Part shown: positions 1 to 16,391 of the stretch, in pieces
Position numbering within the stretch: position 1 is the stretch's first letter
Layout of the letters: the number at the start of each line of letters is the position of its first letter
DNA from: Candidatus Omnitrophota bacterium
GTDB lineage: Bacteria; Omnitrophota; Gorgyraeia; JAGLLT01
Assembly: GCA_030632085.1 (NCBI GenBank)
Contig: DAOVJY010000001.1
Location: 335,402 to 399,401, forward strand
Length of the DNA stretch: 64,000 nt
Direction: 5' to 3'
Notes under the pieces: generated by a model
The model's database searches: none
Told to the model about the DNA's origin: nothing
The model's input: only the letters and a program-made list of their open reading frames with translations
Position numbers and translations under genes: made by a program

Positions 1-61
1 TTATACAGCTGATAATTTTATTCTCTAGATTATCAGCATCTATCTGCCAGCTTACACAGTA

Positions 62-96
62 TAATTCCGGTGACACAATACTTAATTATTTGATTC
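62..96 (+). repeat. REP-like element copy R1 (taattccggtgacacaatacttaattatttgattc); near-identical copies flank the RAYT gene at 44533-44568 and 45267-45292
   Basis: 34/36 nt identity to 44533-44568; also an inverted copy at 45267-45292. Confidence 0.6.
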
Positions 97-320
97 TAAA
101 AATTCAAGAATCAAAACCTACCCCTATTTTGCGTTCATCAGTCTCCACCCAAATATCAGTAACTATATCAAATAAATCCGCATTATCATAATCCGCCGGT
201 AGAACATTCCATGCTGGCTTATCAAACAAATTATAATTTTGTTTATGCTTCTAATATTAAAATCAGTGGCGGTGCCCGCAGCGCAAAGCGATGTGGGTAA
301 CAGTCCACTGAATTACTTTG

Positions 321-1118
321 TTAACTTTGATTGTTTAATCCTATTTCAATAATATTAATCCCAAATTTATCCTTTTTTACTTCTGCCTGATAAAGTTTTG
401 GTTGTATTTTCCGATCTGAAGTAAGTTTTTTAATCTGCTGCTTATATTCTTCCAATATCTTGCAGCCAAATATGACGCCTGTCAATAATTCTCCAGAGAA
501 ATTATATATTCCTGGTCCTTTATCGTGATTAATTATTCTCCATTCTTGTTCGTATTCCCAAATTTTTGATTTTGTTAATAAGGTTGTTTGCATTTGTTCA
601 TCTCTGGAACTATTGAAAAAATTTACTTTGGGGTATTTATCATTATACTTAACTTTCTGAGCGATTACAAAAAATGGACTATTAGATTGGAATTCAAGAC
701 AAAAACCAGTGTGCCCCTGTGCATAATGCGACCACAATAAAAGATGATCCTTTTTTTCCGACATACAAAAAACACCTATTTTATCAAGATAGGAATCAGA
801 TAAATTTTCAGGTATTCGTTTATGTCGTTCTTCTTTCAATATATTTGTTATTTTTTTTTCTTTTTGTTCAATACTTATTTGCGGTGCGTATCTGCAAAAA
901 AGATCTCCAAGATATTTTTTCCAGTCTTCGTTGCTACCGTCATAACATAGCTGAATTTTTGAATCAAAAGGGTCATTAAATTCCTTAGGGGAAGGGAATC
1001 TTAATTCATTATGGGTAAAAATTTTTTCAATAAATTTAAAATTTTCGTTATTAACTGAGTAATATTTATAAAAATAGGTTGGATTTGTCATTTGACTATC
1101 AGTATTTAATGTTTTCAT
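321..1118 (-). CDS. DUF2971 family protein (uncharacterised; candidate effector/toxin of the island)
   Basis: N-terminal YFYKYYS...NELRFPSPKEFNDPFD signature typical of DUF2971; 265 aa; last gene of the minus-strand cassette next to tRNA-Glu. Confidence 0.6.
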   Translation of the reverse strand: MKTLNTDSQMTNPTYFYKYYSVNNENFKFIEKIFTHNELRFPSPKEFNDPFDSKIQLCYDGSNEDWKKYLGDLFCRYAPQISIEQKEKKITNILKEERHKRIPENLSDSYLDKIGVFCMSEKKDHLLLWSHYAQGHTGFCLEFQSNSPFFVIAQKVKYNDKYPKVNFFNSSRDEQMQTTLLTKSKIWEYEQEWRIINHDKGPGIYNFSGELLTGVIFGCKILEEYKQQIKKLTSDRKIQPKLYQAEVKKDKFGINIIEIGLNNQS

Positions 1119-1193
1119 ATCGTTTTATTTTATGGCTAACAATTAATATACGAACTTCGTTTTTTAGGAATTTTAATATCATATACATATATT

Positions 1194-1403
1194 TTACCGT
1201 TGACCTTCTTTTTGCATTAATTCATCAAATTCTTCCCAAGAAAGATGGTGTCCATACGAACGATTGACTGGAACCCACTTAATACTCCCTTTGCTTATTT
1301 TTAAAGTTCCGCTCTTAACTTCGTTAGAGTAAATTTCAAATTCTACATCTTTATTTAACACTATTTTTTGTGGCATTGTAAAATAAATATCATGTTTTGC
1401 CAT
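1194..1403 (-). CDS. hypothetical small protein (69 aa), hydrophilic, no recognisable domain
   Basis: ORF between the Panacea gene and the DUF2971 gene, same strand, with its own ~200-nt upstream spacer. Confidence 0.4.
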   Translation of the reverse strand: MAKHDIYFTMPQKIVLNKDVEFEIYSNEVKSGTLKISKGSIKWVPVNRSYGHHLSWEEFDELMQKEGQR

Positions 1404-1605
1404 TGAACAATCTCCTTTTTAATTTTTTCACCTAACACTTTAAATCAACGGTGCGCTAGCATCCGCTGGATTGCTTTGTTAAATTTTTTAAAAGTTTTCT
1501 GGTAAACCTATCCTCGAAATGAATCAATGGGGTCAGGTCTCTATATTCCACACTTAATTGTTTTACTATCACATCGTGGATTTGATAGTCGCGGTTCCCT
1601 TTTAA

Positions 1606-2655
1606 CTATATGTCAAAAGATAATTCTTCGGCTAATGTATAAGAAATCTTCTGCCCTTCTACAGTGCTTTTGTATGGAACTTCTTCGTGAGAATATTCTG
1701 ATATTTCGCCACATTTAAATTTTTTGAATTTATTCAATACAAAATCCATAATTTCTATTTCATCATCAGAAAATATACTTTCATCACAACTAGCTGTGGA
1801 TTTGAGTTGTTCTCTTATTGCTTGATGAACAACAATTTCATCCTTGCCTATTAACACATCCCTCAACATAACGCTTATTATTAATTCATAATCATCAGCA
1901 GTAGGCCCATAAGAAGAATGGGTATATGAATTCCCGCTTATCGAAACAGAATAAACCCTATAACAAAGAAAGTCCATATACCACAGGAGTTTATTTATCT
2001 TCGTTCTATAAGTCTCGTGGAATCTTAAAATATATAAAATCATATTTTTAATTTTCTCTAGATCGAATTCTTTATATCCAGTGAATTCACCAATTTGCCG
2101 CTCCGAAAGAAACATTTGCTCTAAAGCTTTATTAAAATTAGGTTGGATTTCTTTTTGAATTAATTCATTGATTCGTTTCTTCAAGGCTTCGCCTACACGA
2201 GGAACTAATAGGTGAGCTTGTTTTTCGTAAATTTCTAATAGATTCTCCGGCTTAGCAATAAGTTTTAATACTTCATCATGGACTTCATCTTGTAAATTTC
2301 CCGACTCATATCTATGTATAGTTATTTCCCCCCACCCCAAAAGCTTACTTAAAGCTCTTTGACTTAAACCATAACGATCTCTAATTTCTTGGATTTGTAA
2401 TGGAGTAAGCAAATTATGAATTTTCCTATATTCTAAATATGCAATTTCAAGATTCTTCTCATCTAATGCTTCAACAAATGATTCTTCGTTACATGCTTTA
2501 CATATCATAACGGAAGCATTGACTTTCACATCCTCCCCCCTAACATTGAACAATTCTACTTTTGAAATAATTTGTCCATCAGTCATCTTATTACAATGTG
2601 CGCAATATATTTTTTCATTCATCACATTCTCACCTCCCTTTTCAATTTCCATCAA
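1606..2655 (-). CDS. MqsA-like antitoxin (zinc ribbon + XRE/HigA-type HTH) fused to a C-terminal Panacea (DUF4065) domain
   Basis: N-term CxxC...CxxC ribbon and YGLSQRALSKLLGWGEITIHRYESG HTH resemble E. coli MqsA; C-terminal KLLWYMDFLCYRVY...SYGP region matches the Panacea/SocA-like domain; 16 nt downstream of the MqsR-like ORF. Confidence 0.65.
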   Translation of the reverse strand: MMEIEKGGENVMNEKIYCAHCNKMTDGQIISKVELFNVRGEDVKVNASVMICKACNEESFVEALDEKNLEIAYLEYRKIHNLLTPLQIQEIRDRYGLSQRALSKLLGWGEITIHRYESGNLQDEVHDEVLKLIAKPENLLEIYEKQAHLLVPRVGEALKKRINELIQKEIQPNFNKALEQMFLSERQIGEFTGYKEFDLEKIKNMILYILRFHETYRTKINKLLWYMDFLCYRVYSVSISGNSYTHSSYGPTADDYELIISVMLRDVLIGKDEIVVHQAIREQLKSTASCDESIFSDDEIEIMDFVLNKFKKFKCGEISEYSHEEVPYKSTVEGQKISYTLAEELSFDI

Positions 2656-2671
2656 CGCAATTACAAAACTA

Positions 2672-3019
2672 TTAAGTTGTTTTATGCGGATATTTAATTG
2701 GATAAGTCGCTATATGAAAAGAAATGCATTTAGCTCTATTAAAACTAAAATCGTCACTTAACTTAATATAAATTTCTTCCCCTTGGACATGAATTCCAAA
2801 TTGCCATACCATATTGCCTTGCCTATCTTTATCTTTTTCTGGTCCACTTATGTAATCTTTATAGGTTAGTTGAGCAAATAAGGTTTTTACATACGATATT
2901 TTAATCCCTAAGTATAAAACTGTATCTAAATTCTTTTTGCGCTTGATAAAGACAAATTCCTGGAGTAAAACATACTTGAATTTTTTTAGAAAAACTGTGA
3001 TTTCTTGAGGGGTAGTCAA
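2672..3019 (-). CDS. MqsR-family type II toxin (mRNA interferase)-like protein; probable TTG start
   Basis: LTYKDY..MVWQ...GEEIYIKL pattern aligns to E. coli MqsR D(F)YKS...WQ...GQVYLKI; AGGAGA RBS 5 nt upstream of TTG; immediately precedes the MqsA-like gene. Confidence 0.5.
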   Translation of the reverse strand: MTTPQEITVFLKKFKYVLLQEFVFIKRKKNLDTVLYLGIKISYVKTLFAQLTYKDYISGPEKDKDRQGNMVWQFGIHVQGEEIYIKLSDDFSFNRAKCISFHIATYPIKYPHKTT

Positions 3020-3038
3020 TCATATCTCCTATTGAATA

Positions 3039-3075
3039 TTATCATATGATAACACTTTTGTCAAATCTGTCAAGT
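3039..3075 (-). promoter_or_regulatory. Promoter/operator of the MqsR-like/MqsA-Panacea operon: perfect 14-nt palindrome TTATCATATGATAA (3039-3052) overlapping a -10-like region, with TTGACA-like hexamers at 3059-3064 and 3068-3073 (minus strand)
   Basis: palindrome and hexamers read directly from the sequence ~20-55 nt upstream of the TTG start. Confidence 0.4.
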
Positions 3076-3251
3076 ACTTTTTTTGGCCTTTAATTTTCGC
3101 ACTTGTGATTACAATTTACACAAAACTTCTTCGCCTACTCTTTAAATGCACAAAAAAGGGGAAGTTACCCCGCACTATACGATGCGAAACAACTCCCCTA
3201 AATTCATGGAACTCCTTGTAATCATTTAAATTACAAAAGTATCCGTAGTGA

Positions 3252-3329
3252 TGGTAGCCCCAACGGGATTTGAACCCGTGTCACCGGAATGAGAATCCGA
3301 CATCCTAGACCGAGCTAGACGATGGGGCC
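3252..3329 (-). tRNA. tRNA-Glu (anticodon CUC)
   Basis: cloverleaf by eye: acceptor GGCCCCA/TGGGGCT, anticodon stem TCGGA/TCCGG, loop TTCTCAT, T-arm ACGGG-TTCAAAT-CCCGT, encoded CCA. Confidence 0.8.
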
Positions 3330-12554: not shown

Positions 12555-13841
12555 TTAATTAAGGGTTTTTTCTATTCTCTTTATAACTGTCTCTTTGCCC
12601 AACAACTCCATTACCTCAAACAATCCCGCCCCTTTAGTTTTACCGCTTATGGCCATGCGGGTGGGGTGAATGATATTAGCCGGCTTTAGATTATTTTTAT
12701 CAGCCAAGGCTCTATATACTTCTTCTATTTTCTCATGGGAAAAATCATCAATTCCCTCTAGTTCATTTAGAGCTAATTTTAAATTCTCTTTATTTTCTTC
12801 CTTATCCAAGTGCTTTCTCCGGCCCTTCTCATCAACTGAATAATCATCTTTAAAGAAGAAATCGGCTAAATCTAAGAATTCACTAAAAACTTTTATGCGC
12901 ACTCGGTATAATTCAATTATCTTTTTTAGTTTTTCCTCATCAATAGTTTGTGGGTCTATATTATTTTTTTCTAACTCTTTAATGAAATAAGGGTAAATGT
13001 CTTTGAAATCTTTAGAACGAATATATTCACCGTTTAACCATTTTAATTTATCTATATCAAACTTCACCTGGGTATTATTTATTTTGCTTATCTCAAATTC
13101 TTTCGCCGCCTCGCTCATGCTGATAACTTCCCTATCTCCTTGCGGCTGCCAGCCTAAAAGTAAAAGATAGTTATTTAAGGCCTCGGGTAAAAAACCGTCT
13201 CTCCTATACTCTGAGACGGCTACTCCACCATGCCTTTTTGAAAGTTTTGCGCCATCTTGGCCCATCATTAAAGGTATATGCGCGAACTCCGGCACTTCTA
13301 TGCCCAGAGCCTCATAAAACATAATTTGCTTAGGAGTATTGGAAATATGATCATCACCTCTAATAATGTGGGTAATTTTTAAATTAGCATCATCAACTAC
13401 ACAAGCAAAATTATAGGCCGGTGAGCCATCTGACTTTATCAAAACCTGGTCTTTAATCTGATCGGTGTTAACTGTAATTTTACCATGCACCAGGTCATTA
13501 ATTGAAATAACTCTGCCTTTTTCCACCTTAAAAATAATAGCTTCGCCTTCTTTATATGCCAGGCCTTTATCTAAAATATTTTGAGCTTTTTCTTTATAAA
13601 GCCCGAAGTTATCAGACTGAAAAAAAGGGCCCTCATCCCACTCTAAACCCATCCACTTCAAGTCATTTAAAATATCATCCAAGAATTCTTTTTTTGAACG
13701 TACCAGGTCAGTATCTTCCACTCTTAGCACGAAGGTACCACCAACGTGTTTAGCGTAGAGCCAATTAAAAAGGGCTGTCCTGGCACTTCCTAAATGAAGA
13801 AAACCCGTGGGGCTGGGGGCAAATCTAACTCTTATACTCAT
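12555..13841 (-). CDS. gltX: Glutamyl-tRNA synthetase
   Basis: VRFAPSPTGFLHLGSARTALFNWLYAKH HIGH motif; KLSKR. Confidence 0.9.
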   Translation of the reverse strand: MSIRVRFAPSPTGFLHLGSARTALFNWLYAKHVGGTFVLRVEDTDLVRSKKEFLDDILNDLKWMGLEWDEGPFFQSDNFGLYKEKAQNILDKGLAYKEGEAIIFKVEKGRVISINDLVHGKITVNTDQIKDQVLIKSDGSPAYNFACVVDDANLKITHIIRGDDHISNTPKQIMFYEALGIEVPEFAHIPLMMGQDGAKLSKRHGGVAVSEYRRDGFLPEALNNYLLLLGWQPQGDREVISMSEAAKEFEISKINNTQVKFDIDKLKWLNGEYIRSKDFKDIYPYFIKELEKNNIDPQTIDEEKLKKIIELYRVRIKVFSEFLDLADFFFKDDYSVDEKGRRKHLDKEENKENLKLALNELEGIDDFSHEKIEEVYRALADKNNLKPANIIHPTRMAISGKTKGAGLFEVMELLGKETVIKRIEKTLN

Positions 13842-15100: not shown

Positions 15101-16188
15101 GAGAGGCTCCTTATTTTTTTAATTATTTCTTTCTCACTCGGAATTATCCCGGCTGTCCTGCCGTAAAAATGGACTTCAGACTTACCAAAAACAGCCATTC
15201 GTACATCTTCAACCATCTGGCCCATATTCATCTCAACTACCAGGAATTTAACCTTTTTATGGGCGGCATCTGAAATAATCTTTTTAGGAAACGGCCAGAG
15301 AGTTATAGGCCTGATCATACCTATCTTAAGGCCTTCATTTCTTAAGGTCATCATCACCTTTTTACAAATACGGCTGGTCGCTCCAAAAGCAACTAAGATA
15401 ATTTCACAATCATCGATATAAAAAGTCTCAGCCCTAACCTCATTACTTTCTATAATGTCATATGTTTTTTTCAGTTCTTTATTCAGGTTCTCCAGCGCGC
15501 CATACTCCAAAAATAGAGACTTGACAACCTTAGGCTCCTTATTTTTAGTCTGAGCCAGGGCCCAGCTTTTATCCACCTTTGTCTTTTCATGCTTAAAAGA
15601 AGGCTTCAAAGTAACCGGCTCGGCCATCTGGCCTAAAACACCGTCTCCTAAAACTAAAACCGGAGTCCTGTAGATATCGGCTAAATCAAAAGCCAGGTAA
15701 GTCAAATCAAAAAGCTCCTGAGAACCATTGGGAGCCAAAACAACAGTGTGGTAATCTCCGTGGCCGCCGCCTTTAGTTGCTTGAAAATAATCTGACTGCG
15801 CGGGGCTGATATTTCCCAGGCCGGGTCCGCCGCGCTGCATATTAACTATAACCGCCGGCAACTTACAAGCCGCCAAATAGGAAATGCCTTCCTGCTTTAA
15901 GCTTATCCCGGGTGAAGAGGAAGAAGTCATAACTCTTTCTCCGATGACTGAGGCCCCAAAAATCATACTAATGGCAGCCAGCTCACTTTCAGCCTGAATA
16001 AAAACCCCGCCTGCTTCAGGCATATTATCAGCCATATAGGCTGTCAGTTCATTCTGGGGAGTTATGGGATATCCGGCATAAAACTTACAGCCGGCTTCTA
16101 TGGCCGCCTGCCCTATTATATGGTTACCCACCATTAATACCCTATTTTTATCTTTTTGATTATTTTTTGTCATTTGACTTTTCATCAT
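15097..16188 (-). CDS. 2-oxoacid:ferredoxin oxidoreductase alpha subunit
   Basis: size and position; PorA/KorA-like. Confidence 0.75.
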   Translation of the reverse strand: MMKSQMTKNNQKDKNRVLMVGNHIIGQAAIEAGCKFYAGYPITPQNELTAYMADNMPEAGGVFIQAESELAAISMIFGASVIGERVMTSSSSPGISLKQEGISYLAACKLPAVIVNMQRGGPGLGNISPAQSDYFQATKGGGHGDYHTVVLAPNGSQELFDLTYLAFDLADIYRTPVLVLGDGVLGQMAEPVTLKPSFKHEKTKVDKSWALAQTKNKEPKVVKSLFLEYGALENLNKELKKTYDIIESNEVRAETFYIDDCEIILVAFGATSRICKKVMMTLRNEGLKIGMIRPITLWPFPKKIISDAAHKKVKFLVVEMNMGQMVEDVRMAVFGKSEVHFYGRTAGIIPSEKEIIKKIRSLS

Positions 16189-16390
16189 CTATTATTTCAA
16201 TCGCGGCTTCGGGGCACATTATAGCGCAAGACTTACAACCCGTACACTCATCTTTACCGCGGACGAACTCCGCGGGATAAACGCCCCTTTTATTAAGTTT
16301 TTTAGATTCAACTATGAGCCCTTTCGGACAGTATTTTATGCAAAGCCCGCAGCCCTTGCATTTTTCAGTATCTATTTTAATCCTAATCAT
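16160..16390 (-). CDS. 2-oxoacid:ferredoxin oxidoreductase delta subunit (2x[4Fe-4S] ferredoxin)
   Basis: CKGCGLCIKYCP and CTGCKSCAIMCP. Confidence 0.8.
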   Translation of the reverse strand: MIRIKIDTEKCKGCGLCIKYCPKGLIVESKKLNKRGVYPAEFVRGKDECTGCKSCAIMCPEAAIEIIDDEKSNDKK

Positions 16391-16391
16391 T

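Follow-up and report, generated by a model that had tools for sequence, protein, structure and literature searches.

The DUF2971 gene near one end of the window (the whole stretch of DNA analysed, 64,000 nt) is probably a self-contained, single-gene defence candidate of the abortive infection (Abi) type, belonging with PDC-S31 and Aristaios, and the conserved 69-aa gene that precedes it is best taken as independent. The initial annotation had proposed that these two genes form a toxin/effector pair acting in a conflict system. Our results support the conflict role but not a dedicated pair, and the locus looks like an unremarkable part of a tRNA-linked defence island. Both ORFs (265 and 69 aa) were found as originally described, as was the Panacea-domain gene upstream of them, which encodes an MqsA/HTH/SocA_Panacea fusion. 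All genes of the cassette lie on the minus strand (Table 1); 75 nt separate the 69-aa ORF from the DUF2971 gene, and the first gene, encoding a protein of 115 aa, lies 17 nt upstream of the MqsA-Panacea gene. The Rfam scan returned the tRNA as its sole match.

Table 1. Features of the DUF2971 cassette and its surroundings, in window coordinates
Feature	Position	Strand	Basis
DUF2971 / PDC-S31-like gene, 265 aa	321-1118	-	Pfam, PADLOC and PHROGs matches, AF2 model
Conserved 69-aa gene, family without Pfam model	1194-1403	-	ORF call, profile search, codon changes
MqsA-type zinc-ribbon/HTH antitoxin fused to SocA_Panacea, 349 aa	1606-2655	-	Pfam, NCBIfam, PHROGs
Weakly MqsR-like putative toxin, 115 aa, first cassette gene	2672-3019	-	E 4.3e-4, below Pfam cut-off
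tRNA-Glu(CUC), 3' end facing the island	3252-3329	-	tRNA scan, Rfam
Spacer between Panacea gene and 69-aa ORF, 202 nt	1404-1605	-	Consensus scan, RNA folding
Leader with AAGGAG ribosome-binding site, 26 nt	1404-1429	-	Conserved in the L001 copy
Terminator-like imperfect hairpin (311-263) and U-rich tail (262-252)	252-311	-	RNA folding
Best promoter-like site of the region, TTGACA-16-TATCAT	3046-3073	-	Sigma-70 consensus scan

The 265-aa protein carries the expected FYKYYS...EFNDPFD signature and passes the Pfam threshold for DUF2971 (PF11185; 35 bits against a cut-off of 22, E 3.8e-8). It is also matched by phrog_1762 (E 4e-51) and, over its full length, by the PADLOC profile PDC-S31 (PDLC04990; E 2.9e-59, residues 12-257 against profile positions 5-256 of 259). 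The PDCs have candidate status only; they derive from genes that lie inside BREX, DISARM and type I RM systems (Payne et al., bioRxiv 10.1101/2024.01.29.577857). The same Pfam family includes Aristaios, a 316-aa DUF2971 protein encoded by the Lactococcus plasmid pUCCL641_199 and predicted to have an ADP-ribosyltransferase (ART)-like fold (Grafakou et al. 2024, PMC11381338). Cloned as a single gene, Aristaios is active in an Abi-like manner and interferes with phage transcription, and it is both active and tolerated when carried alone on a high-copy vector (PMC11381338, PMC13064643). Because of the full-length PDC-S31 match and the family held in common with Aristaios, to which the literature on the ART superfamily can be added, the earlier view of DUF2971 as lacking a known function is outdated.

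An alignment with 99 homologues sharing 25-74% identity, all of which match PF11185 as well, revealed that N48, D49, Y132, G138, Y158, K183, W187, E190 and E192 are invariant. The two glutamates form an ExE motif (E190-x-E192), and together with Y132 and Y158, likewise invariant in the 99 sequences, they fit the published description at the level of the alignment: DUF2971 has been assigned to the ART superfamily, close to DarT and AbiGi, on the basis of profile-profile methods, and is described as having an ExE motif and a Tyr that is strictly conserved (PMC12522546). The AlphaFold2 (AF2) model of the protein is confident (pLDDT 93.3), and in it E192 opens a beta-strand. A Foldseek search of this model against the PDB gave no significant match; four of the best 25 matches were to the ART CteC, at E 0.56-2 and TM 0.24-0.29. 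A profile search of the PDB sequences with DUF2971 retrieved nothing, and no Pfam match to DarT, AbiGi or Tox-ART-HYD1 was found at E<=5 for the 99 members among the best 25 of 61 families.

Members of the family are frequently encountered on mobile DNA. Homologues with about 30% identity are carried by SSU5-like phage-plasmids of ~105-115 kb from E. coli, Klebsiella, Salmonella and Citrobacter, as well as by phage SSU5 and pLF82/phage Cyrano, and 499 out of 72,556 plasmids encode one, many of the 499 being such phage-plasmids and 280 being from Klebsiella. We surveyed the gene neighbourhoods in 80 loci from species-representative genomes and six from metagenomes, the window locus being counted apart; genes in the fetched loci were called by a simple longest-ORF method. 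All-against-all BLAST clustering of 675 ORFs neighbouring DUF2971 did not bring out any partner family that recurs: such clusters as formed are due to synteny among close Nitrospira relatives, beyond which no neighbour family recurred across 84 non-redundant loci from many phyla. The Pfam labels of the neighbours were heterogeneous (type I RM, PLDc_2, SRAP, recombinase and many housekeeping genes; first 145 of 285 proteins, best 25 families by frequency). Rare neighbours may have escaped this Pfam scan; the BLAST clustering took in all the neighbour proteins. Over ~170 loci the family is seen to travel alone, a point in favour of a protein that is sensor and effector in one.

The 69-aa ORF is a genuine conserved gene and more than a chance ORF. 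A k-mer search retrieved only two relatives (90% and 57% identity), and an exhaustive HMMER profile search gathered 690 cluster representatives at E<=1e-3, a number that falls to 115 at E<=1e-10; with few exceptions these are proteins of 65-80 aa that stand alone. Named sources include Desulfothermus, Acidimicrobiia, Acidobacteria, Chloroflexota and Flavisolibacter. The family found no match in Pfam, NCBIfam, PADLOC, PHROGs or the PDB sequences, the profile search of the latter returning noise. D19, G32, S37, G39, W43, W56 and F59 are near-invariant in it, and AF2 models the 69-aa protein as five beta-strands followed by a C-terminal helix (pLDDT 80.6). Foldseek found no significant neighbour for this model, and we do not take the faint PH-like and ssDNA-binding matches as evidence. 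Several family members end in Lys/Ala-rich basic tails, which might weakly hint at nucleic-acid binding. HTH, RHH and AbrB antitoxin signatures were searched for in the 69-aa protein and none was found.

The history of the gene can be read from a close copy in an unrelated context (L001), where a DUF2283 gene is the next one downstream. Nucleotide identity between the window and this copy is 92% inside the ORF and 23-26%, the random level, in the flanks; it starts 26 nt before the ATG, covering the strong AAGGAG ribosome-binding site, and ends at the stop codon. The codons of the two copies differ by eight synonymous and seven non-synonymous changes, a pattern consistent with purifying selection. 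The gene is therefore real and, the identity being restricted to the interval from ribosome-binding site to stop codon, was moved as a bare cassette with no conserved promoter of its own; the leader being the only flanking DNA still conserved, the mobile unit therefore comprises just this interval.

To describe the surroundings of the family, we assembled 66 loci from metagenome contigs which, with those collected earlier, made 72 loci in total, or 45 dereplicated groups including the window locus. The 66 were retrieved with a 10-sequence alignment from metagenome contigs only, and because of this narrow search the census is biased to the GTLK[IV]SKGS subfamily. A co-directional gene lies upstream of the family member in 29 of the 45 groups; downstream, a co-directional gene follows within 150 nt in 23 and a convergent one in 18. 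Ordinary neighbours include a permease, MPG glycosylase, UbiA, PTS EIIA, GNAT, AhpC and an ECF sigma factor, and no recurrent partner of the family was found in the loci surveyed. Relatives were sought in phage genomes and IMG/VR, where none was found; only one is located on a plasmid, of Gordonia, in which an Xre/RES TA pair is followed by the 67-aa member and by a 355-aa hypothetical protein.

Two further arrangements were observed in the course of this survey. In L015 (801-7300), L017 (1-8219) and L113, members of the 69-aa family are located between an N6_N4 DNA methylase of ~1060 aa and a ResIII helicase of ~1020 aa, in an operon that is type III-like or DISARM-like; L017 also encodes an SNF2 helicase, a DUF6932 protein and a 317-aa protein. 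In a Nitrospirales MAG (L089, 3269-5804), an AbrB/PIN TA pair, a 68-aa family member, an opposite-strand 157-aa gene and a DUF2971 gene form a mini-island flanked by housekeeping genes, whose composition parallels that of the window cassette. The 157-aa gene looks HEPN-like by eye, a PADLOC match being absent.

As for transcription, the spacer upstream of the 69-aa ORF had been described as about 200 nt long and as holding its own putative promoter, so that the two genes downstream might form a separate transcription unit. The length is right, but a minus-strand scan of 1404-1605 for the sigma-70 consensus, which may not be that of the lineage, returned no promoter-like site, and a separate unit is not supported. 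The RNA of this spacer folds moderately better than shuffled sequences (z -2.28). The only strong minus-strand sigma-70-like site lies at 3073-3046, upstream of the MqsR-like gene, with 11/12 matches and a TG; this site could drive all four genes. The count of sigma-70 matches in the region is not above that of shuffled controls. The consensus scan found no terminator between the four genes. The hairpin just after the DUF2971 stop codon was missed by the simple terminator scan and found by folding (MFE -21.1 kcal/mol, z -2.06). A single four-gene transcript is possible, as is an internal promoter that went unrecognised.

Further evidence for a conflict role comes from the island itself, which we followed beyond the window on the same contig (L004; window coordinate = 11404 minus L004 coordinate). 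GC content is 0.27-0.33 in window positions 1-3000 and 0.37-0.42 beyond 3500. The MqsA-Panacea protein combines an MqsA-type antitoxin (TIGR03830, E 8.5e-28) with a C-terminal SocA_Panacea domain (E 5e-17), an architecture that recurs as phrog_10390 (E 3.7e-27). Past the left edge of the window follow a 192-aa protein, a 175-aa DUF7931/PLD-like protein and a 208-aa membrane protein, then AbiEi/AbiEii (PADLOC E 6e-64 and 3.5e-98), an RHH/PemK TA pair and finally housekeeping genes. The last 14 nt of the tRNA-Glu, GTTGGGGCTACCAT, at L004 8140-8153, are repeated at 13807-13820, 15621-15634 and 16378-16391, these three distal copies lying past the left edge of the window inside 48-nt repeats. The copies bound three modules, namely MqsRA-Panacea/69-aa/DUF2971 with the genes downstream, AbiEi/AbiEii, and RHH/PemK, which looks like serial integration at one tRNA. 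Window positions 1-3250 are thus the tRNA-Glu-proximal end of an ~8-kb low-GC TA/abortive-infection island. With MqsRA-like/Panacea, AbiE and PemK genes in this island, the PDC-S31 match and the family held in common with Aristaios, the conflict role first suggested from genomic context finds support.

Several details of the island are recorded here in their own right. The distal copies of GTTGGGGCTACCAT resemble a tRNA 3' end with the T-loop deleted. Window positions 1-76, on the minus strand, are the cut start of the 192-aa ORF (L004 11328-11906), which is coiled-coil-like; its interpretation as a serine-recombinase remnant was dropped, Pfam and PADLOC having given no support. At L004 12367-13499, the gene for the 175-aa DUF7931 protein (E 1e-6; its similarity to PLDc_2 and MkoC is faint) overlaps the start of that for the 208-aa protein, which is a multi-pass membrane protein, and the overlapping genes may make up a further two-gene defence candidate within this module of the island. 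A 37-nt AT-rich stretch, GTAAAATATATGTATATGATATTAAAATTCCTAAAAA, at window positions 1161-1197 (L004 10207-10243), overlaps the 69-aa stop codon and extends into the spacer before DUF2971. It is 81% identical to L004 16574-16610, upstream of a 309-aa metallo-beta-lactamase-fold gene that lies at the opposite end of the island; the resemblance could reflect a promoter-like element common to both places or, the DNA being rich in AT, could be due to chance.

The idea of a two-gene module, in which the 69-aa protein would restrain an ART-like DUF2971 toxin as its antitoxin, chaperone or regulator, deserves to be weighed first. The two genes are co-directional and closely spaced with no terminator between them, the short gene stands close ahead of a co-directional gene in about half of its groups (23/45), and in the unrelated genome of L089 a family member lies within 725 nt upstream of DUF2971. 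However, the conserved adjacency that characterises type II TA systems was not found. The 69-aa profile matches only that one locus among the 86 other DUF2971 loci, the remaining 85 being devoid of it, and DUF2971 occurs near family members only in the window locus and L089, i.e. in 2/72 loci or 2/45 groups, leaving 43 groups without it. Even in L089 an opposite-strand gene stands between the two, the 92%-identical L001 copy has DUF2283 in place of DUF2971, and the downstream gene is convergent in 18/45 groups. Nor was a recognised antitoxin fold found in the 69-aa protein with Pfam, NCBIfam, PADLOC, PHROGs, the PDB or Foldseek, and the lack of HTH, RHH or AbrB signatures also speaks against the pair. 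Finally, Aristaios works alone on a high-copy vector, which points away from an obligate partnership. Both the window locus and L089, in unrelated genomes, show a TA pair, a 69-aa family member and, within 1 kb, DUF2971, in this order, and two such co-occurrences exceed what random placement of two uncommon genes would give, leaving room for some functional link; they are best explained by common residence in TA/defence islets and not by obligate partnership. We therefore consider the toxin/effector pair unlikely: the 69-aa gene is a real neighbour of DUF2971, not its regular or dedicated partner.

Two other readings appear less probable still. Panacea domains pair with very diverse toxins, and the one in MqsA-Panacea could neutralise DUF2971 as a second toxin, within a four-gene TA/defence operon transcribed from 3073-3046. 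Such an extended operon would agree with the common direction of the four genes, with the only strong promoter-like site preceding the first of them and with the only terminator-like hairpin following the last. On the other hand, the enrichment next to Panacea genes that the initial annotation had proposed to look for did not appear: phmmer, at single-sequence sensitivity, found no homologue of Panacea, MqsA or the MqsR-like protein in any other fetched locus, so that the recurrent Panacea adjacency of a PanAT system was not seen with DUF2971 as the toxin. The MqsA-Panacea fusion recurs by itself as phrog_10390 and already has a candidate toxin immediately upstream, and DUF2971 homologues have no conserved partner. 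The MqsA-Panacea gene is part of a neighbouring TA module and not of the DUF2971 unit, and we regard neutralisation of DUF2971 by Panacea as the least probable of the readings weighed here. Slightly better placed, yet still improbable, is a non-defence role, for example that of an ART-like effector for secretion, or of a passenger gene in decay. Here one may invoke the Legionella survey in which ~18% of DUF2971 proteins were predicted effectors (PMC12522546), the housekeeping genes that flank many DUF2971 loci and the candidate status of PDC-S31. Decay is, however, at odds with an ORF that is intact, full-length and endowed with all family-invariant residues, and a non-defence role with the position of the gene in a TA/Abi island, the frequency of the family on plasmids and phage-plasmids, and the finding of no secretion-related genes among the DUF2971 neighbours.

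For the self-contained DUF2971 protein, we infer the following scheme, in which anti-phage activity, ART chemistry and trigger are all putative. The protein would be inactive until phage infection; after sensing the phage it would probably act as an NAD+-dependent ART-like enzyme, whose E190/E192 site may modify either nucleic acid or some part of the transcription machinery, and the resulting block of phage and host gene expression would amount to abortive infection. The 69-aa gene moves separately, as a minimal cassette from ribosome-binding site to stop codon, into many contexts, several of them restriction/defence or mobile.

A divergent member, chromosomal and of an uncultured low-GC lineage, is thereby added to the DUF2971/PDC-S31/Aristaios family; the practical value of this addition is modest. 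The widespread family of ~70-aa proteins, missing from all of the four domain libraries searched, is possibly the more useful by-product. Because its members repeatedly occur within restriction and TA modules or next to them, and move as a bare ORF cassette, it is a reasonable guilt-by-embedding candidate, though we would give only a slender chance to its being a promiscuous accessory domain of conflict systems.

Comparison with known systems places the DUF2971 gene as follows. It resembles PDC-S31 in its full-length HMM match and in being a single gene with no conserved partner (84 loci), and differs in residing in a tRNA-linked TA/Abi island instead of inside BREX, DISARM or type I RM systems. 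With DarT (DarTG) and AbiGi it would have in common, according to the literature, the conserved Tyr and ExE motif, represented here by the invariant Y132/Y158 and E190-x-E192; unlike in these systems, no cognate macrodomain or antitoxin gene adjoins DUF2971, HMMER detected no similarity and Foldseek did not recover DarT. The 69-aa family, in turn, can be compared with genes embedded in defence systems, from which it differs in that about half of its contexts consist of ordinary housekeeping genes and in its absence from PADLOC, Pfam, NCBIfam and PHROGs. Aristaios is longer (316 against 265 aa), plasmid-borne where the present gene is chromosomal and belongs to an uncultured low-GC host, and the link between the two proteins is their common DUF2971/PF11185 domain; both are encoded by single genes that have defence genes around them and lie on DNA gained by horizontal transfer, a plasmid in one case and the island in the other.
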